Notes under the pieces: model-generated
What the model saw: the letters and a program-made list of their open reading frames with translations, nothing else
What the model was told of the DNA's origin: nothing
Database searches by the model: none
Shown here: one piece after another, positions 1-9,818 of the stretch
Layout: each line of letters begins with the position of its first letter
How positions within the stretch are numbered: the first letter of the stretch is position 1
Origin: Candidatus Vampirococcus lugosii
GTDB lineage: Bacteria; Patescibacteriota; Gracilibacteria; Absconditabacterales; Absconditicoccaceae
Length of the DNA: 9,818 nucleotides
Assembly: GCF_018420025.1 (NCBI RefSeq)
Contig: NZ_JAEDAM010000037.1
Coordinates: forward strand, 1 to 9,818
Direction: 5' to 3'
Translations under genes and position numbers: made by a program

Positions 1-3000
1 ATATCAAGATTAATTGAAGGTTCTACTATTGTAATAAGTTGATCAGATTGTCAAGTTAAAATTGTATCTCATAATTCATAATTTACTTCAACAGAATTTA
101 ATTTTGTATCTCACAATTTATTATTTTGAGAATCAAGAACGACAACATCATACTTAATAATTATATATTCTATATTAGTTCCAGTATTTGAATTTACTAT
201 ATCTTGAAATTCAAAATTTATATTTTCATTAATAATATTTTTAAATCATCAAGTATAAACTACTCAAGTTGATGCTTGTATTTCCAAACTATCTTGTAAT
301 ATAGATAATCCTGTTGGTAAAGTATCATTTATTTCAAGATTTTGAGTTGTTCATTTCAATAATGGAATTTGTATTTTATATTTTCATTTTTCTCATATTC
401 AAAGTTCTCAATTTCAAGGATTTTCAAGAGTTTTTATTATTCAATTATCTGTTCTTATATTTATTGTATCATAATCACTTGTAGTGTATTCTCTTCTATA
501 ATTATTATCAACTCAAGGATATGAATAATAGTCTATATTTACTGCTCAACTAAGTAATTCTCAATAAGTTACTGTATTTTCCAATATAGTATTATAAGTG
601 TATTCAATACTGTCTCATACTTCCAAAACTGTTGAACCTGAATTAAATTCATAATCTCAAGAAATAGTTGTTTTATTTGGAAGATTGTCTTCCCATTCCA
701 AATCATAAGCTGGTGCAGATCAATTATTTGTTATATTAATTGTTGTTTGTATTTCATCTCATCATTGTCAATAATTTTTACTAAATTCTTTACTTATAGT
801 AATATTAGGTTCTACTATATCAAATTTAGTTTTTTCTGTATTAGAACAATCAGGTTCACTATGTATTTTTTCATTATCATCTCAATTATAACTTAATTTA
901 ATTGTAGAATTTTTATTTCATCATGCTTGATTATTTGTATCATCAAGAACTATTGCTTTAGTTTCCAAAACAAAACCTGTTCAAGATCATGTTCATACAT
1001 TAATTATATCTCCAAAATCAAACTCTATAATATTTCAAGATAATGTTATATTATTTGATGTGTTTGATACTACTAAATTATTCAATATTTTTCATGTCAA
1101 AAATTCTATTCAATTAGGCAATTCTTGTTTAAGTTTTACTCATGTCAAATTTAGTTTTGGAATATCAACATTTATTTTATATGTAATTTCTTCTCATATA
1201 GCCAAATCTGAACAATTTATATTAAAATTATCTTTATTAGTTCCTGTAAGAGATGTTGATTCAATAAAATGATTTATTTCAAGATCATCAATATCTAAAT
1301 TAATAAAAGTGTCTCATGTATATTGTCTTTCTTCTCAATTATTATTTTTCAATGTTGAATATTCAAGATTTACTTTATTTTTTTCTTGTGTTCAAGCTAT
1401 AACTCATGATAGTACTTCTACTTCAAAATTTATAGTTTGTGTATTGTTAATAAGTAATTCATCAAGTGTTAATCAACTTGAGAATAAATCTTCAGCAGTC
1501 CCATTAAAATCTAAATTTCATGTTAATGTTCATGATAAATATTTAAGATTAGTAGGTAAAATATCTTTAACATTTAAATTATAAGCTGGAGAATTTGATG
1601 ATGAATTATGTTCAATATTAATTGTATATTTAACAGTATCTCATACTTGTGCATTTGAAGGATTTACCGTTTTACTTATATCAAGATTAGGTTCTACTAT
1701 ATCAAAATTTACTTGATTTGCAGTTTTACTATTATCTCAATCATAATTTATATTAATATTAGAATTTTTAGTATTTCATTCTTTATTATTTTCGTTATTA
1801 AGAACTCTTGCTGTAGTTTGTAAAACAAAACCAGTTCAAGATCAGGTTCATACATTAATTATATCTCCAAAATCAAACTCTATAATATTTCAAGATAATG
1901 TTATATTATTTGATGTGTTTGATACTACTGAATTATTCAATATTTTTCATGTCAAAAATTCTATTCAATTTGATAATTCTTGTTCAAGTGTTAATCATGT
2001 CAAATTTAATTTTGGAATTTCAATATTAATATTGTATATAACTTCTTCTCATATAGTTAAATTATCTCAATTTGTTCATGTAAGAGATGTTGATTCAATA
2101 AAATGATTTATTTCAAGATTATCAATATTTAAATCAATATTATCTGATTTATTATATTTTTTTTCATTTCAATTATTATTTTCTAATGTTGAATATTCAA
2201 GATTTACTTTATTTTTTTCTTGTGTTCAAGCTATAACTCATGATAGTACTTCTACTTCAAAATTTATAGTTTGTGTATTGTTAATAAGTAATTCATCAAG
2301 TGTTAATCAACTTGAGAATAAATCTTCAGCAGTCCCATTAAAATCTAAATTTCATGTTAATGTTCATGATAAATATTTAAGATTAGTAGGTAAAATATCT
2401 TTAACATTTAAATTATAAGCTGGAGAATTTGATGATGAATTATGTTCAATATTAATTTCATAAGATACTTCATCTCATACTTGTGCATTTGAAGGATTTA
2501 CTGTTTTACTTATATCAAGATTAGGTTCCAAAATATTAACAGGAGTATTTTTACTTATAGATTTAGATGAATAATTAAATTCTCATTCTGCTTTTCTATT
2601 TGTTCATTTTGAAATAGTATTTTTAACTATAGCATTAGTTTGTATTACAATACTTTGTGGATTTGTACTTGAATTAACTATATCTCAAAAATCTATTGTA
2701 GTTCATGTAAATATTGTTCAAGTTGTAATTGAAGATCAAGAAAAAGTTAAATCAGATCATAAGGAAACAATAGAACCACTAATAAATTCCAAATTACTAT
2801 GAAGATTTTCTTCAAATGAAGTTCATATATATGTTCATCATGATAAAGTAATTGTTGTCTCAAAACTTATTTTTTCTCATATAAGTAAATCGTTACCAGT
2901 ACTTCGTGTTTCTGAACTTCAAGAAATAATTCTTGATATTCATGGTCTTGCAAGTTCAAAATCAATATCAGTAGAAATAGGTCAGAAATTATTTACTTCT

Positions 3001-5615
3001 TTGGAATCAGCATCTTCACTTGAATAATAATCCATAGATATACTATTTTTTCTATTATTTCAATCTATAACAAAACCAGTAGTAGGAGCTAGTGTATAAT
3101 CAATAATAACAGATTTACCTTTTTTAATATTTGATCTTGAATTTATTTTATTAAAAGAAATTTCAAGATTTGTTCAAGATTGATTAAAATTTGCACCTGT
3201 TACTGTAAATCCTGATCAAACTATACTACCAGTATAAAAATTCATATTTTCTGGAATAATATCAATTAGATTTTCAACATAAGCATCATTTCTTCATTTT
3301 GAATTATCAATTATCACTTCAAAATCAACATTATTTCAATATGAAACATTTGTTCAAGTTGAATTTTTTGATACTTCTAAAGCAGGAAGTCATATAGTAA
3401 AAGGAACTTCCATTTTATTCATATTAAAAAGTTTTCATTCAGAATTTCTAAAACTTGCTATAGCTACATTTTTTTGTGGAAGTTCTCATTCATTATTGTA
3501 AGAAGAAGGTTTTTTATCCAAAATATCAACATCAAAAGTAATAGCAAAAGTATTACCTCACATTCAACTTCATAAATTAAATTCAATATTATTTGCATCC
3601 GTTGTTTCTATCCAATGATTATCTGATGCAGTATCTCAACTTAAAACAAGACCATTAAATTCATTATTAATTCAATTCCAATCATTTGTAAGTAGATCAT
3701 TTCAAAATATATCTTTAAGATTTTCATCAGTTTGAAAATTTATATTAGATATATTATCATTTGGTCACATTAATAATGGAATAGCATCTTTTATATTTAT
3801 TCATGTAAAATATACATTTGGAAATTCTACTTCTATAGCAAATTTAAGAGTAGATCATACGGGTAAAGCAGTTCAAGTATTATAATTACTATTATTATCA
3901 CTATTATAAATTGTTCAATCAGGTAATTCTACTGAAATTAATCTTTTTTTATTTGTAGGAACTGGAGCAGTTACACTTGCACTAGAATTGTATTCAAGAC
4001 TTGTTCATACAAGATAAGTATATCAATATCACCACCATCCAGAATAAACATATGAAATATATCAATAAAATTTGGCTTGATTAGTTAAAGTTTTTGTATT
4101 TTCATAAGTTCAATCTTCAATATCTCAATCCAAAATTGCTCTATATTCTATTGTTACAGTATCACCAGAATAAATATGTCAAGTTCATAAAGAAAAAATT
4201 AATTCAGTTTCTCAAGTATTAAGTAATTTTGATCAAGAAAAAGTAAAATTATTTCATGATCAAGAATTTGTACTTGAAAAATTTCATGTATATGATATTC
4301 AATCTGGTAAAGTATCAACAATATAAGTACCAGAACCTAAAGCTCCAAAATCAATATTTTTACCAAGATTTAATGTAAGTGTATAATTCAATTCATCTCA
4401 TATAACTGGATTTGATTTATCAACAATTTTACTAAAACTAGCATAAACTAAAGAATAAGTAGTTGATTTTTTGATAGAAGATGTTATTTGATTTGAAGTA
4501 TTTCATTTGTTCCATGTTCATTCTGCAAGCATTGTTGTATCACTTGACCAAGAATCTCAATTATTTATTTGAGCTGATTCATTTAATTCTATACTTCAAT
4601 CTAGATTGTATGAATCAATTTGAGATGATAATCACCTAGTTTTGTATTTAATTTCAAGAGTTTGTCCAGTTCATACATTAATTCATGATAAATCAAGTTG
4701 TACATATCAAGAATCATCACCAGTAAGATAATTTATGTTTATATTTGATACTCATCATGTTTGAGTAAATCATAAAAACTCTCTATTATTAGAAACAATT
4801 TCTTGAATATGTAAATCATTTAATGATCATTGAGAATTTCATTCAATTTTTATTGAAGTTTCATATTCATTTCAAACTATAAATTTTGTAGCTCAAGCTT
4901 TTGATATTTTATAAGGTACAAAACTAGTTGTAGCAGATTCAAAATAAAATCATTCTATATAATTAATACCAGATTCATAAAATTGATAATATGGACCAAA
5001 ATAAAAAGTATATCAATTTGCAGATTCAAAAAGATTTGCGGGGAAATTTATATCATTTGCATTATATTCAATAATTGATCATGTACCAGCAAAATTTATT
5101 GAACCTGGCATTGCTGACGAAGGTGCTCAATCTGGAACTGCTCATCTTCAATATATACTATTTTCAGCATATGCAAGAACCTTTATTTCTGTATCATCAA
5201 AAAGATCTATATTATTATTAGATTTTAAATTTAAAGTATAATTTTCAGAAGTTGTCTGTACTAATACATCATCAGTTTTGAAAAATAAATATTGTCATCA
5301 TGTATATGAAATTATTTCATAAGGATCTCATAAATCACTACTAGAAATAAATTCAATATTATCTGGAATATTTACTATAAATCAAGGATTAAATGCCTCT
5401 CATTCAGAACTTTTTTTATTTTTAAGATTTATTTTTAGTTGAAAATTTTCTCATAAAATATTTGATTCACTAAGTGAAGGATTTACTTCAAGATCTAATT
5501 TTGCTGATCAATCAATATTAGAACCAGAACCATTAGCAAAAATATTATTAAAAATAAAAGTTCATATAAATAATATGGAAATAATTAATAATTTTATTAT
5601 TTTGTTCAAACTCAT
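1..5615 (-). CDS. Giant secreted surface protein / putative adhesin built from repeated DUF11-type (TIGR01451-like conserved repeat domain) beta-sandwich modules. The N-terminus is complete and the C-terminus runs off the left edge (>=1871 codons, table 25).
   Basis: I checked every codon of the minus-strand frame by hand (plus-strand codon starts divisible by 3). There is no TAA or TAG from 5615 down to 3, while TGA occurs very often. In sequence this AT-rich, that is not expected by chance. The ATG at 5613-5615 has an in-frame TAA at 5619-5621, one codon upstream, so it is the first possible start. The N-terminus is MSLNKIIKLLIISILFIGTFIFNNIFA/NGSGS. The recurrent module EPNLDISKTVNPSNAQVGDEVSYEINIEHNSSSNSPAYNLNVKDILPTNLKYLSGT (2361-2528, twin at 1527-1694) fits the DUF11 pattern (GD-x-V-x-Y-x-I ... 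A-x-N-x-x-V-x-D-x-LP-x-x-L-x-Y). At least six such modules are recognisable, e.g. KIVDKSNPVIGDELNYTLTLNL...VDTLPDGISY and ITISKEFSKNYGQGGDEIQTTINITNNGSAPAYDLEWEDNLP. Confidence 0.85.
808..2523 (-). repeat. Intragenic tandem duplication of a two-domain module inside the adhesin gene: unit A 808-1689 (882 bp, 294 codons) and unit B 1690-2523 (834 bp, 278 codons).
   Basis: Direct comparison shows that 1351-1623 and 2185-2457 are identical over 273 bp. Segments 1639-1689 and 2473-2523 differ at 1 position. About 170 bp around 975-1140 differs from 1830-1995 by only a handful of mismatches. The remaining stretches are clearly diverged and carry in-frame indels: the offsets between matching landmarks are 882, 855 and 834 bp, all multiples of 3. 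The similar plus-strand track ORFs at 1060..1272 and 1915..2106 are antisense echoes of this repeat. Confidence 0.9.
5535..5615 (-). other. Predicted Sec-type signal peptide of the giant surface protein (about 27 aa).
   Basis: The translation is MSLNKIIKLLIISILFIGTFIFNNIFA|NGSGSN. It has Lys residues in the n-region, an uninterrupted hydrophobic core, and small residues (F-A) before a polar Asn/Gly/Ser stretch. The cleavage position is my estimate only. Confidence 0.6.
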
Positions 5616-5626
5616 TTTTTATTTTT

Positions 5627-5653
5627 ATATATGTAAAATATATTTACATATAT
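5627..5653. promoter_or_regulatory. AT-rich palindrome (11-bp arms, 5-nt spacer) 12 nt upstream of the adhesin start codon. Possible operator or weak RNA hairpin; function unknown.
   Basis: The sequence atatatgtaaa-atata-tttacatatat has arms that are perfect reverse complements. It lies in the 68-nt gap (5616-5683) between the small ORF stop and the adhesin ATG. A weak sigma70-like pair on the minus strand overlaps it: TTGACT at 5672-5677 and TATAAT at 5652-5657. The spacer between them is only 14 nt. Confidence 0.3.
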
Positions 5654-5683
5654 TATATATAAAAATAAAAAAGTCAAAATATT

Positions 5684-6079
5684 TTATATATTATAATTAT
5701 TTGTATTATTTGTAGTTCATGCTTCATCTGGTCTTATTTTTTTAGTTATAGCAGTTAATACTTCTGTTCTGAAATGAAAATCTCATATTCTATTTATATT
5801 AGAATCTAAAACATTTCTTCATTCAATTTTTAATTTAATTGTATTATTAAATAATCTACACATTTGTTCTTTTTCTATATCTAATCTAGTAATTATTTGA
5901 TTTCTATTTTCGGTATCTTGTGGAATTAAATCTTTTTTTTCATCAAAAATATTATTTATTATATCTTTTCATTTATCCAAAAAATCTGATAAAGTAATTT
6001 TTTCATTGTTTTCTTCATTTGATAATAATTTTTCAAATCTATTATCTAGCTTAAAATTTCATTCATCTTTATTTCACAT
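5684..6079 (-). CDS. Hypothetical small hydrophilic, charged protein (131 aa, table 25) with no recognisable family.
   Basis: The ORF runs from ATG 6077-6079 to TAA 5684-5686, with 5 or more in-frame TGAs and no TAA/TAG. An open run of 131 codons (168 if the upstream open frame to 6187 is counted) is very unlikely by chance at this AT content. The translation is MGNKDEGNFKLDNRFEKLLSNEENNEKITLSDFLDKGKDIINNIFDEKKDLIPQDTENRNQIITRLDIEKEQMCRLFNNTIKLKIEGRNVLDSNINRIGDFHFRTEVLTAITKKIRPDEAGTTNNTNNYNI. It starts 13 nt after the TAG of the upstream gene. The start is uncertain because upstream in-frame TTG codons exist at 6145, 6172 and 6181. Confidence 0.6.
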
Positions 6080-6092
6080 AATTTCTTGTAAA

Positions 6093-8804
6093 CTAAAACC
6101 TCCAAAAATTGATCCTAATAAATAGGAAGTTTTTTTTGGGATCAATTCAAGCTTGTGATTTCAAATTTGCAACTTTATCAAGTTTATTTACTCTTCTTCA
6201 TCATTCAATAGCAGAGAATAAAAAAGATTTAACAACATCTCTAACACCAATATCTTCATTATCTAATCATTTAATATTTGCTGATAAAGCGGATATAGCC
6301 GTTATATCAATTCCTAATAAAGCAAGTTTTCAAGCTATATCTTTATTATTTAAAATATTTCTAAAATCCATATTTTTTGTAAAACCTAAATAACCAAGAG
6401 CAGCAGCTGAAACATAAAAATCATTTCATCGATTTCATTCTTGATTTCATAATTTACCGTCTCTGATAAGTCATTCAGTTTCAACAGAGAAAAAATTGAA
6501 AGGCACTGATTTTGCAATTCAAACTCATCATTTTATTGTATTTTGTGCACCTTCCCAATTATTAATAACTTTAGAAGCACCTTTAATGAATCAATCCCCT
6601 TTTTGATACCATGTAGTTGATTTATATGCTCTAAGTCATCTTATAGTTGCACTTGTAGCGGCCCTTGCTCACATAGTGAGAAGTTTAGTTGCTATCATTG
6701 ATAATCAAACTCAAGCTACACTAGAAAGTCATATAATTGCTATTTCAAATGCAAGTTCTCACAAAATTTCTTTAGTATCATTAGATAAGTTAAACCATCA
6801 AATTCATTCTATATCACCATACATTTTCAAAAAAGGATTATTACCATCATAAGATCAAGACCAATTTGTATTTGTTTTAACAATTGCTTCTGTTATAGAT
6901 TGATTTACAGCACCTTGTAATAACATTACTTCTAATTCTTTTTTTGCATCATTTTCTGCATCAGCAATAAGTTTTTTAATTTTTTCTTTTTCTTCTTCAT
7001 CTTCTACATCATCTAATTTTTCTTCTAAATTATTTATATAATTATCAATTATTCCATCTGATTGACTAACTACCTTTTCTATCCTTTTAAAAAATTGAGA
7101 AATTTTTCTATTAAGTTCCATCCCTTGACTAAGTTCTCAATGTTCATTATTAAATAATCAAGAATTTATAAATTTTTCAATAATCGGATCATGTTCTAGA
7201 TTAGAACTTTCTATACGACCTCCACGAGATGTAGATTTATATAATTTAGAAATAATATTGTCTATTCATTCTTCTTGTATATATGAAATTAATTCATTAA
7301 TATCTCAATGATTAATTTGATTTTCAAAATCATATCAATAATCTTCATTTTCACCATATTCGGTTAATATATCAGGATTATTAATTACATATTCTTGAAC
7401 TAATTCTCATGCTTTTTTATGATCACCAAATTCCGTTTCTATTATTTGAAAAAGTTCTAAATGTCTATCATGTGAGCTTTTACCATCTTTATTATTTAGT
7501 AATTCATCAATTTTATTTCTTAATCATTCATTTTTATCTATCATTTTTGGTAAACTTCATACTCTATGTAGATGTTTATCTTCTACTATTATATCATCAA
7601 TTATAGTGCTTTTAATATTTTCTAATTTACTTGTTAATTCTTTTTGTACTTTTTGTAAATTATCTTCAATTCATCATTCTTCATAATCTCATATTATATT
7701 TATCAACATACCTTTCATAGGAACAGGAGAAGATAAGTATAAATCAATATAAGATATTTTTTCATAAATATCTCAAGATTCATTGTCTAAATCATTAAGT
7801 GCATCCAAATCTAATTCTATATTTTCTACTCTTCCAAAAACATTTTTTTTCTCATAATCTCATTGAAAAACATATAATAATTCTTTGGCAATATCAAAAT
7901 CTTCCAAACATTCTTCTTTTACTTTTTCCAAGAATTCTTTTGATTTCTCAAAATCTTTACTTTCAAAAAAATTTTTTGATTCCATAAAATCTGATATTTT
8001 TTCTTCAATTCAATTTAATCATTTAAGATGTGGATATTTATCAAAAAAATCTTCTATATTAGAACCAAAACTATTCATACTTTCAAAAATATCATCAAAG
8101 TCAGTTTCAATTATATCTCAATTATATAATATATTAAACTTTCACTCTTCATAATTAGAACTTAATAAAATTGGTGTATTTTCCATTTTTTCAATATATT
8201 CTCTAATTTCAGAATATGTATCTGGAGATATATTATTATATTCTGCTATTTCATCCCAAGTAATTCATTTACTTAATAATTCCATTAAATTAAAATAAGA
8301 TTCATCACCATTTTCATCTTTATAATTAATCATAAGATTATCGTTATCAGAAACTTGAAAAACTTTACTATCTTTTATATTAATAGTTAATGATTGTCAT
8401 ATATTTATTTTATCAACATCTTCTATTTCGTTTTTATCAATTAAATATTCAATTTTTAATCAATAATCTTTTGCAATTTGAGATAATATATCTCAATGCA
8501 TAACATCATGTTCTATTGTTTGTTGAACTCTTTCATCAATATTATTTAATAAATTAGTGACCAAATCATTTGATTTATATTCCATATCATTATTTGCAAT
8601 AATTTTTATCAAAAAATCAACTAATCAATATTGAATAGCTTCTTTTTGAGAATCACTGAGTTCATCTGTATCATAAATTTCTTCCATAAAAGAAGATGAT
8701 TTTAATACTATACTTTCAACAATATTTTCTTTTTCTTCAGAGGAAATATCACTATTTTCCAATCTAGTATCAACTGCTTTTTGTGTAAATTGTTCTATAC
8801 TCAT
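6093..8804 (-). CDS. 903-aa LysM domain-containing orphan protein (table 25): acidic helical N-terminal two-thirds and a hydrophobic Gly/Ala-rich C-terminal third, with no signal peptide.
   Basis: The ORF runs from ATG 8802-8804 (MSIEQFTQKAVDTRLENSD...) to TAG 6093-6095 (...KKNFLFIRINFWRF*). I translated every codon by hand and found only TGA interruptions. The track ORFs 8625..8921(-) and 6855..7121(-) are in the same frame and are fragments of this gene, each cut at a TGA. The LysM match is at residues ~100-143. I prefer the 8804 start over the track start at 8921. The 39-codon extension reads like translated AT-rich promoter DNA (YPKKIIANKYFLYIIYSKHYIFKYKLI) and contains a good TTGCAA-16-TATAAT promoter candidate. 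Confidence 0.8.
6096..6770 (-). other. C-terminal hydrophobic / Gly-Ala-rich region of the 903-aa protein, probably membrane-associated. The strongest transmembrane-helix candidate is at 6690-6743.
   Basis: The translation begins ...EILGELAFEIAIIGLSSVAGVGLSMIATKLLTMGARAATSATIRGLRAY..., with an 18-residue uncharged core IAIIGLSSVAGVGLSMIA at residues ~688-705. Shorter amphipathic or hydrophobic stretches follow: FYVSAAALGYLGF, IAGKLALLGIDITAISALSANI and VVKSFLFSAIEGG. The composition changes abruptly from the preceding Asp/Glu/Lys-rich region. This is assessed by eye only; I ran no TM predictor. Confidence 0.5.
8376..8507 (-). other. LysM (peptidoglycan/chitin-binding) domain within the 903-aa protein.
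   Basis: DVMHGDILSQIAKDYGLKIEYLIDKNEIEDVDKINIGQSLTINI aligns with the LysM consensus Y-x-V-x-x-GDTL-x-x-IA-x-x-YG-x-x-x-x-x-L-x-x-x-N-...-L-x-x-GQ-x-L-x-I. All three signature glycines (GD, YG, GQ) are encoded by TGA, at 8493-8495, 8460-8462 and 8397-8399. Confidence 0.75.
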
Positions 8805-8841
8805 AATTAATTTATATTTAAATATATAATGTTTTGAATAA

Positions 8842-8869
8842 ATTATATATAAAAAATATTTATTTGCAA
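8842..8869 (-). promoter_or_regulatory. Candidate sigma70-type promoter for the LysM-protein gene or operon.
   Basis: On the minus strand, TTGCAA (8864-8869) is followed by a 16-nt spacer and then TATAAT (8842-8847). This sits ~38 nt upstream of the ATG at 8804. The background is so AT-rich that -10-like hexamers are common, hence the low confidence. Confidence 0.35.
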
Positions 8870-9064
8870 TAATTTTTTTGGGGTAGTGTGCTGTAAATGT
8901 TAAAATGTCAGTATAACTCATCTTTGTAGAACAAAATTTCTAAAAACTTGATTTAGACAAGGATTTGCGAGAAAATAAAAAATTTTTTATATATTATATA
9001 ATTTTATATTATTTAAAACAATAATTTACTATTTAATTCTTTATTTTTAGATTAATTTTCAATA

Positions 9065-9182: not shown

Positions 9183-9818
9183 ATGGGAAATAATAAATGA
9201 TTTACATTAGTAGAGTTGATAGTAACAATAGCTATAATATCAATATTGGCGGTAGTAGCAGGATTAACACTTACACATTTTGTGGGGAAATCAAGAGATA
9301 CACAAGTAGTAAGTAATATAAATACAGTTGCCAAATGATTAGATATGTATTATATAAGTAATTGAGAATATCCTGAGCCAGATAATTTTACATGAGTATG
9401 AATAAAACAATGAGAGTGGTGAAGTGGTAAATCATCAGAAATAGAAATAATACCTCATCCTAAAAATAGTGATAAATCTAGTTTTGTATATACTATAACA
9501 GATAATCAAAAAAGTTATACTATAGCTGGATGGTTGGAAAATGAGTTAGTTATGAATGGTTTGTATACAGATAAATTGTATGCAAGAAATAATTATACAG
9601 ATATGATACTTTACAAAAAATGACAAATTCCAGTAATTGTAAAAGAAGATAATTGGGTTCCAGTTACTAATACAAATAGTGATTGATCTTCGTTTGTTGT
9701 ATTATGAGATAATAGTGAGATTGTAAAAAAACAAGATGGAACAAGTTTATCAGGTGATACTTTGGATGAAGTATTTAGTTGAGTAAATGAATATGTAGAA
9801 CAACAATGATCTACTTGA
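9183..9818 (+). CDS. Type IV pilin-like protein (prepilin-type N-terminal cleavage/methylation domain). The 5' end is complete and the ORF runs off the right edge (>=212 codons, table 25).
   Basis: The translation begins MGNNKG|FTLVELIVTIAIISILAVVAGLTLTHFVGKSRDTQVVSNINTVAKGLDMYYISNGEYPEP.... It has a short basic leader, Gly at -1, Phe at +1, Glu at +5 and a ~22-residue hydrophobic helix. It then has the pilin-typical (A/L)xxYYxxNGxYP motif. The G(-1) (9198-9200) and the NG of NGEYP (9363-9365) are TGA codons. I count 13 in-frame TGA against 8 GGN codons and no TAA/TAG. The last codon in the window (9816-9818) is TGA, so the ORF continues. Confidence 0.85.

Follow-up and report, generated by a model that had tools for sequence, protein, structure and literature searches.

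The window analyzed here is an entire 9.8-kb contig (9,818 nucleotides) of the epibiotic predator Candidatus Vampirococcus lugosii, with a GC content between 17 and 29%. The gene under study lies on its minus strand, where it was deposited as an open reading frame (ORF) of 903 codons at 6093..8804 (RefSeq WP_213349203.1; the GenBank model, VAMP_95n100, begins at 8921 and encodes 942 aa). We found that the real gene most likely extends over 5684..8804 and encodes a protein of 1039 aa, with a LysM domain in a long acidic N-terminal part, a single conserved hydrophobic segment, and a conserved C-terminal helical domain. We tentatively propose that it may be a lineage-specific single-pass envelope protein, with its acidic LysM part on the wall side of the membrane and its C-terminal domain in the cytoplasm. 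No paper mentioning this protein was found in a literature search.

UGA is read as glycine in the gene

Under code 11 the gene was not visible, and the region yielded short ORFs alone. With UGA read as a sense codon, a minus-strand frame of 949 codons with 44 in-frame TGAs was open over 6093..8939, and a second minus-strand frame ran for >1872 codons with 138 TGAs. Translation from the ATG at 8804 gives the 903-aa protein described in an initial annotation of this DNA. That annotation was right that an open frame exists here on the minus strand when UGA is sense, while its 3' boundary at 6093 was wrong, a frameshift having been overlooked and the protein truncated.

The Vampirococcus genome paper reported that UGA is reassigned to glycine (PMC8080830). 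In the gene itself, all three conserved LysM glycines (residues 104, 115, and 136) are encoded by TGA. At glycine positions conserved between the Vampirococcus protein and its ortholog in Candidatus Absconditicoccus praedator, GGT stands opposite TGA in both directions, and the use of UGA as glycine (code 25) is therefore evident within the gene. We also noted that the plus-strand GC skew over 6000..8750 was strongly negative (to -0.46) across the gene and positive beyond 8750, where a prepilin gene lies on the other strand, as would be expected if the coding strand is rich in purines (G over C).

A homopolymer indel cuts the deposited gene

The deposited ORF ends 12 codons past a run of eight A residues on the minus strand (6130..6137; T8 on the plus strand), which falls in the codons for Pro-Lys-Lys at residues 889 to 891, and the +1 frame stays open through this run into a small downstream ORF. 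In an independent assembly, the run has seven A residues: when a Logan-assembly contig (SRR13241709) was compared with window positions 2428..8944, 6516 of the 6517 positions were identical, and the sole difference was A7 versus A8 at 6130..6137. The shared 6.5 kb contain three A/T runs of at least eight bases (5933..5940, 6130..6137, and 7843..7850), all within the gene, of which the middle one alone differs. The 90% cluster of the protein includes a 1078-aa member from the same Logan assembly, read with TGA as Trp, and this product is uninterrupted across the junction (...IDPKKTSYLLGSIFGG...NNYNI).

Downstream of the A run, the frame is open for 148 codons, while the off-frames there carry 7 to 9% TAA/TAG, and the small downstream ORF aligns with residues 948 to 1084 of the ortholog (BLASTP E 2e-16, 33% identity). 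Across 6093..6131, the ortholog matches the +1 frame and not the deposited one. The last 12 residues of the deposited protein, NFLFIRINFWRF followed by the stop (6093..6131, minus strand), have no counterpart in the ortholog and do not belong to the real protein. With A7, the full gene consists of 1039 codons plus TAA at 5684..8804 on the minus strand, as in the Logan contig and its read-through product, whereas the deposited A8 breaks it into two pieces on the same strand, 6093..8804 and 5684..6130. Because the Logan contig has A7, the ortholog is collinear end to end, and the downstream frame is open and conserved, the corrected 1039-aa gene is most likely the real one. On this evidence, the small downstream ORF is no gene of its own; it encodes the conserved helical domain at the C-terminus of the same protein.

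It could be argued instead that A8 is the true genomic state, so that the gene would be a decaying pseudogene or a contingency locus at which poly-A length toggles between the full-length and a C-terminally truncated protein. Homopolymer phase variation is frequent in surface genes of reduced, host-dependent bacteria, the run belongs to the three longest of A or T in the 6.5 kb, and two assemblies made from essentially the same DNA disagree at this homopolymer alone. We nevertheless consider this explanation very improbable. The 148-codon downstream frame is open and belongs to the better-conserved part of the protein (33 to 42% identity), as for a coding sequence under selection, efficient slippage is hardly expected at eight bases, and the Vampirococcus DNA was whole-genome amplified (PMC8080830), which makes homopolymer errors likely. 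That poly-A slippage might switch the putatively cytoplasmic C-terminal domain on and off is kept as a secondary possibility.

The N-terminus is conserved and lacks signal-peptide character

The upstream ATG at 8921 used in the 942-aa GenBank model adds 39 residues (8805..8921) that do not resemble a signal peptide and to which nothing in the ortholog corresponds. The N-terminus MSIE[QS]FT, obtained from the start at 8804, is conserved in both species at the protein level, with different codons. As judged from this comparison, the GenBank start is 39 codons too far upstream and the RefSeq start at 8804 is correct. The GenBank model of the ortholog (UFX83428.1), for its part, starts 7 codons late relative to the conserved MSIESFT start of RefSeq. 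The best sigma-70-like promoter match, TTGCAA-16-TATAAT at 8842..8869 on the minus strand, lies inside GenBank's 39-aa extension; it is weak, and the total of promoter-like matches was not above the shuffled expectation.

Using hydropathy, we found no signal peptide (a basic n-region and an h-region of ~10 or more residues) at either candidate start or in the ortholog. The maximum 11-residue hydropathy (KD11) in the first 50 aa was 0.96 in Vampirococcus and 0.40 in the ortholog, and 1.49 for the upstream start, compared to 2.9 for the secreted adhesin and 3.2 for the prepilin encoded in the same window. Furthermore, the RR motif is absent from the N-terminus, and residues 1 to 20 are net negative. 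The absence of an N-terminal signal peptide, as initially described, was thus borne out at both starts, and the thought that the true start might lie upstream and encode one was not.

A single collinear ortholog is found in Absconditicoccus

An exhaustive HMMER search of 1.84 billion representatives (E ≤0.001) gave 386 matches, the best 150 of which were examined. All but one of these 150 cover the LysM stretch alone, and the remaining one is a full-length homolog, a 1087/1094-aa protein of Candidatus Absconditicoccus praedator (E 3e-68). This ortholog (1094 aa) aligns collinearly with the Vampirococcus protein over the entire length of both, with 29% identity, so that the term "orphan" used at first was too strong. 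Vampirococcus and Absconditicoccus are two distant genera of Absconditicoccaceae, both preying on Chromatiales in saline lakes (PMC13059738). Besides Vampirococcus, Absconditicoccus is the sole predator of purple sulfur bacteria described in the family. As far as can be judged from the best 150 of the 386 matches, the protein is restricted to this lineage.

In public data, most genes called in code-25 organisms are fragmented or mis-called, metagenomic sets included, which limits homolog searches. Scans of genome, viral, and metagenome contigs, which included the pattern YGDIEGIGxFN with Gly as GGN or TGA, gave no further relatives; in the genome-contig scan, the two source genomes were apparently not recovered either. 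A word-indexed protein search with the full-length query returned the query itself alone, and with the C-terminal part or a two-species C-terminal profile it returned nothing, the known proteins included, which makes these C-terminal negatives weak.

When whole proteins and three regions from both species were compared with Pfam, NCBIfam, PHROGs, and PADLOC at permissive thresholds, no match outside LysM was common to both species, and profiles of PDB sequences gave LysM matches alone. The remaining ~95% of the protein thus had no match in any library. One candidate, Shango SngA from PADLOC (20 bits, E 1e-4), was rejected as compositional, since it fell in the acidic helical region of the Vampirococcus protein and the ortholog had no such match at E ≤10. 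Models of the N-terminal 674 aa of the Vampirococcus protein and the C-terminal 437 aa of the ortholog were built with AlphaFold2 (AF2) on two-sequence alignments and reached mean pLDDT values of 51 and 34, respectively; in the latter, the C-terminal helices scored 55 to 68 and the counterpart of the Gly/Ala-rich stretch <40. Foldseek searches with these low-confidence models gave no match below E 0.1. The initial view that the C-terminal region belongs to no named family therefore stood, housekeeping families included, in Pfam, NCBIfam, PHROGs, PADLOC, PDB sequences, and Foldseek.

The corrected protein has one conserved hydrophobic segment

All features of the protein are given on the minus strand. 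Residues 1 to 650 (6855..8804) form an acidic, mostly helical (predicted) N-terminal region with a net charge of about -79 (-123 in the ortholog), which begins with predicted acidic helices over residues 1 to 99. Its first 640 residues contain 13% E, 10% D, 5% G, and 2% A, in line with the very acidic, helix-prone part of ~640 residues noted initially, and its lowest conservation was seen for residues 241 to 440, with 12 to 17% identity between the species. Proteome-wide acidity was considered as a cause of this composition and rejected: the housekeeping proteins at the ortholog locus have pI values of 4.6 to 9.9, and among all 21 proteins encoded at that locus the ortholog ranks as the most acidic. 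At residue ~650, the composition switches, with E+D falling from 23% to 9% while G rises from 5% to 12% and A from 2% to 9%. The abrupt change to a Gly/Ala-rich region was already recognized in the initial annotation and was found again here, residues 641 to 903 (12% G, 9% A) having a net positive charge.

The best-conserved block, NPxLxMYGDIEGIGxFNLS (residues 656 to 674; 6783..6839), precedes the membrane segment by a short distance and is in no library; the window of residues 641 to 680 shows 62% identity between the two species, compared to 29% overall. It is followed by the single conserved hydrophobic, predicted transmembrane segment (residues 688 to 705; 6690..6743), IAIIGLSSVAGVGLSMIA, which has small-xxx-small spacing and is hydrophobic in both species (KD19 of 1.95 in Vampirococcus and 2.14 in Absconditicoccus), in agreement with the one strong transmembrane candidate named before. 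The charges around it are asymmetric: within 25 residues, the ratio of K+R to D+E was 1/6 (Vampirococcus) and 3/5 (Absconditicoccus) on the N side, compared to 5/0 and 6/0 on the C side. The several amphipathic segments described earlier and a second hydrophobic patch (residues 823 to 841) were not kept as hydrophobic in the ortholog.

Beyond the segment, a weakly conserved, net basic, Gly/Ala-rich stretch runs from residue 706 to about 891 to 900 (6132..6689). The protein ends with the conserved C-terminal helical domain of ~135 aa (corrected residues ~905 to 1039; 5687..6091), which is predicted to be soluble, is a separate small ORF in the deposited assembly, and belongs to the better-conserved parts (windows 881 to 1000, 32 to 42% identity). 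The membrane region is thus not located at the C-terminus, as it had seemed to be in the truncated protein.

The LysM domain (residues 103 to 141; 8382..8498) is recognized by Pfam PF01476 over profile positions 5 to 42 of 43, with 36.0 bits against a gathering cutoff of 20.9 (E 6.9e-9), which substantiates the LysM call at residues ~100 to 143. A two-species profile matched solved LysM domains in the PDB that bind peptidoglycan or chitin, those of Ecp6 (2e-10), MltD, SafA (E 0.005), and LytE. The motif HGDILSQIAKDYG...DKN...IGQSLTI aligns with the LysM domains of Ecp6, CEBiP, and MltD and is kept in the ortholog; the consensus LysM positions (GD-x-L, IA, YG, N, and GQ-x-L-x-I) are present, with Ile/Val in place of the Thr of GDTL. 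The AF2 model over residues 100 to 145, where a LysM would be expected to adopt a beta-alpha-alpha-beta fold, was built on the two-sequence alignment and had a pLDDT of 28 to 47. Residues ~157 to 200 (8205..8336; INYKDENGDES...GITWDEIAEYNNISPD) may be a degenerate second LysM: this segment is conserved in the ortholog, shows weak pairwise alignments to LysM repeats (E 0.003), and is crossed by ~15 multi-LysM matches among those listed, with no Pfam call. The ligands of LysM are extracytoplasmic in nearly all characterized bacterial cases.

The protein may tether the wall to the membrane

In the arrangement that we tentatively favor, one transmembrane helix (residues 688 to 705) would hold the ~1039-aa protein in the cell's own membrane, the ~680-residue acidic N-terminal part with LysM would face the wall and bind peptidoglycan, and the Gly/Arg/Lys-rich stretch and the C-terminal helical domain would reside in the cytoplasm. 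The protein could then connect the wall to the membrane, as a tether or scaffold in the elaborate envelope of these epibiotic predators. We infer the orientation from the positive-inside rule, by which the Lys/Arg-rich flank of a membrane segment faces the cytoplasm: because the charge asymmetry is conserved, the C side would be cytoplasmic and the LysM part would lie outside, on the side of its usual ligands. That the protein binds peptidoglycan and acts as a tether is inferred as well. It is consistent with this arrangement that, at 29% identity between the species, one hydrophobic segment alone is conserved, and that a 62%-identical block abuts it, as might be expected of a functional membrane-proximal element. 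It would also accord with this arrangement that negatively charged N-tails are known to cross the membrane aided by the membrane potential, as shown for short tails only. The cell wall of both organisms is of the Gram-positive type and contains peptidoglycan, and their surface is complex (PMC8080830). Of the three roles suggested in the initial annotation, i.e., an envelope-spanning tether, an exported effector, and a phage-like protein, the tether fits best, given the one conserved membrane segment and the conserved charge asymmetry.

Several points weigh against this arrangement. We know of no precedent for an N-terminal domain of ~680 residues crossing a membrane without a signal peptide. 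The known signal-less N-terminal translocations involve ~100 to 200 residues (ProW and EbpS). Some LysM proteins, i.e., Kbp, SpoVID, and SafA, are cytoplasmic, and a statistical rule is the sole basis of the proposed orientation. Furthermore, the AF2 models (mean pLDDT 34 and 51) are unusable and hence give no structural support, and the gene neighborhood is not conserved and hence gives no guilt by association. In a bolder version, proposed for a family confined to predatory Absconditicoccaceae, the ~680-residue acidic LysM part would be exported without a signal peptide, either through reverse signal-anchor insertion at a scale without precedent or over an undescribed route that recognizes MSIExFT, and the protein would be a component of the ~100-nm fibrous predator-prey junction; we consider this unlikely.

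The gene neighborhood differs between the two species

In the window, the downstream neighbor on the minus strand (3..5615) encodes a giant secreted surface protein, a DUF11 adhesin of >1871 aa with a signal peptide and four DUF11 domains, which runs off the contig and in which 7.4% of the codons are TGA (Gly). This gene contains a tandem DNA module of ~834 to 855 bp, with copies that are 88 to 98% identical (869-1168/1724-2023 and 1319-1618/2153-2452), and these repeats probably explain the assembly break at the contig end. The upstream, divergent neighbor on the plus strand (9183..9818) encodes a type IV prepilin-like protein (Pfam N_methyl, 35 bits; G|FTLVELIV motif) and also runs off the contig.

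The ortholog (CP054059.1) belongs to a closely packed array of three genes, separated by 2 nt and 12 nt, among housekeeping genes. Its array partners, an 83-aa Lys/Glu-rich protein and a very acidic protein of 298 aa (9747..9998 and 13298..14194, respectively, of L002, a piece of CP054059.1), have no known family, signal peptide, or membrane segment. The adjacency to an adhesin and a prepilin is not kept beside the ortholog, and none of the 10 proteins flanking it matches anything in the window; the conserved gene neighborhood that had been looked for was thus absent.

Alternative placements and roles of the protein

The acidic LysM part could also be a cytoplasmic scaffold or sensor, with the C-terminal part directed outward or with the protein attached peripherally. 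We regard this as rather unlikely but nonetheless as a serious alternative: it would be the simplest reading of a conserved acidic N-terminus without a signal peptide in either species, and a 680-aa domain made ahead of the membrane segment would be hard to export. The ortholog is also tightly packed with two soluble proteins that lack export signals, the SafA LysM is among the PDB matches, and the LysM would then not be for mature wall binding, as in E. coli Kbp and in the mother-cell proteins SpoVID and SafA. Set against this, the opposite orientation would break the charge asymmetry, since the flank on the C side, which within 25 residues carries five to six Lys/Arg and lacks acidic residues, would need to be moved across the membrane, and a LysM ligand would be expected outside the cytoplasm. 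Quite unlikely, in our judgment, is an exported predation effector, which would leave by a non-Sec route (holin-like, pilus-associated, or other), dock through LysM on prey or own peptidoglycan, and insert its helix in the prey membrane as a pore or translocon. The lack of a signal peptide, the glycine-zipper-like spacing in the hydrophobic helix, and the conserved N-terminal heptapeptide, which could be a recognition tag, would suit such a protein, as would its restriction to the two described predators of Chromatiales (PMC13059738) and the holin and haemolysin-like factors reported in Vampirococcus (PMC8080830). The libraries, however, showed no likeness to a toxin, pore-former, or trafficking domain, and no LXG/WXG/Rhs/PT-type Pfam domain was found in the protein at E ≤10. 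The C-terminal module stood behind no other N-terminus among the best 150 of 386 matches from the 1.84 billion representatives, so that the polymorphic-toxin-like recurrence once envisaged gave way to a single homolog, collinear over its full length. The flanking genes are not shared and include no conserved immunity or chaperone gene, and a 135-aa soluble domain after the membrane region, together with a basic cluster after the helix, is typical of a resident stop-transfer segment. The effector role thus gained nothing from the analysis.

A phage origin, as a tape measure or LysM lysis protein that was domesticated or is prophage-borne, is extremely improbable. The length and helical character of the protein, its hydrophobic segment, and its LysM would suit such an origin, and PHROG endolysin/LysM families do match it, but they cover residues ~58 to 151 alone, i.e., the LysM module. 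Two tape-measure proteins occur among the Foldseek viral matches, all of which had E >0.1 and TM-scores <0.15 with a low-confidence query model. When the 896 aa outside LysM were compared by tblastn with 50,697 phage and 72,556 plasmid records, nothing matched; viral contig scans were empty, neither neighborhood contains phage genes, and a catalytic domain is absent. The tape-measure or lysis protein suggested initially was therefore abandoned.

Relation to known LysM systems

The logic of the proposed tether resembles that of the FimV/HubP landmark proteins, which are unrelated in sequence and have another domain order. FimV/HubP/TspA-type proteins of Proteobacteria are large (about 900 to 1600 aa), very acidic, single-pass proteins whose one LysM holds a scaffold to peptidoglycan, traits that the protein studied here would share. 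The gene in Vampirococcus adjoins a type IV pilin gene, although this is not so in Absconditicoccus. No FimV model of NCBIfam or Pfam matched the protein at E ≤1, and no such protein was among the best 150 of 386 matches outside LysM. Moreover, FimV has a cleavable signal peptide, a periplasmic LysM, and an acidic region that is cytoplasmic and follows the membrane segment, whereas in the present protein a signal peptide is lacking and the acidic region adjoins LysM without a break, ahead of the membrane segment.

The nearest precedent for the proposed topology is EbpS of Staphylococcus aureus, an integral membrane LysM protein without a signal peptide whose charged N-terminal ~200 residues are surface-exposed. 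It differs in its C-terminal LysM, its two membrane segments, and the size of the exported part (~200 aa, not 680), and no homology was detected. B. subtilis SpoVID and SafA and E. coli Kbp (YgaU) also have LysM and no export signal, and SpoVID is strongly acidic as well; these proteins are soluble, 150 to 575 aa long, and without a membrane segment, and their similarity to the protein is limited to LysM. The best sequence matches to residues ~95 to 150 are LysM modules of murein hydrolases (MltD, LytE, and phage endolysins), from which the protein differs in having no catalytic domain. The family itself is new, while LysM-anchored envelope proteins as a sort are already known.

Implications for Vampirococcus and its relatives

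The GenBank model of the gene is wrong at both ends, with a start that makes the protein 39 aa too long and an end cut by a homopolymer indel, and the RefSeq model has the right start and the same truncated end; the 1039-aa sequence is the proper basis for comparative or structural work. Should the LysM indeed lie outside the cell, the protein would represent signal-peptide-independent export in an extreme form. Within the large uncultured bacterial clade to which they belong, no members other than Vampirococcus and Absconditicoccus have been characterized, and about half of the genes of these two carry no annotation. Few large envelope-type proteins are common to both, and this one, for which no other homolog was detected among the best 150 of 386 matches, is therefore a reasonable candidate for a part in the lineage-specific biology of the envelope and of attachment.

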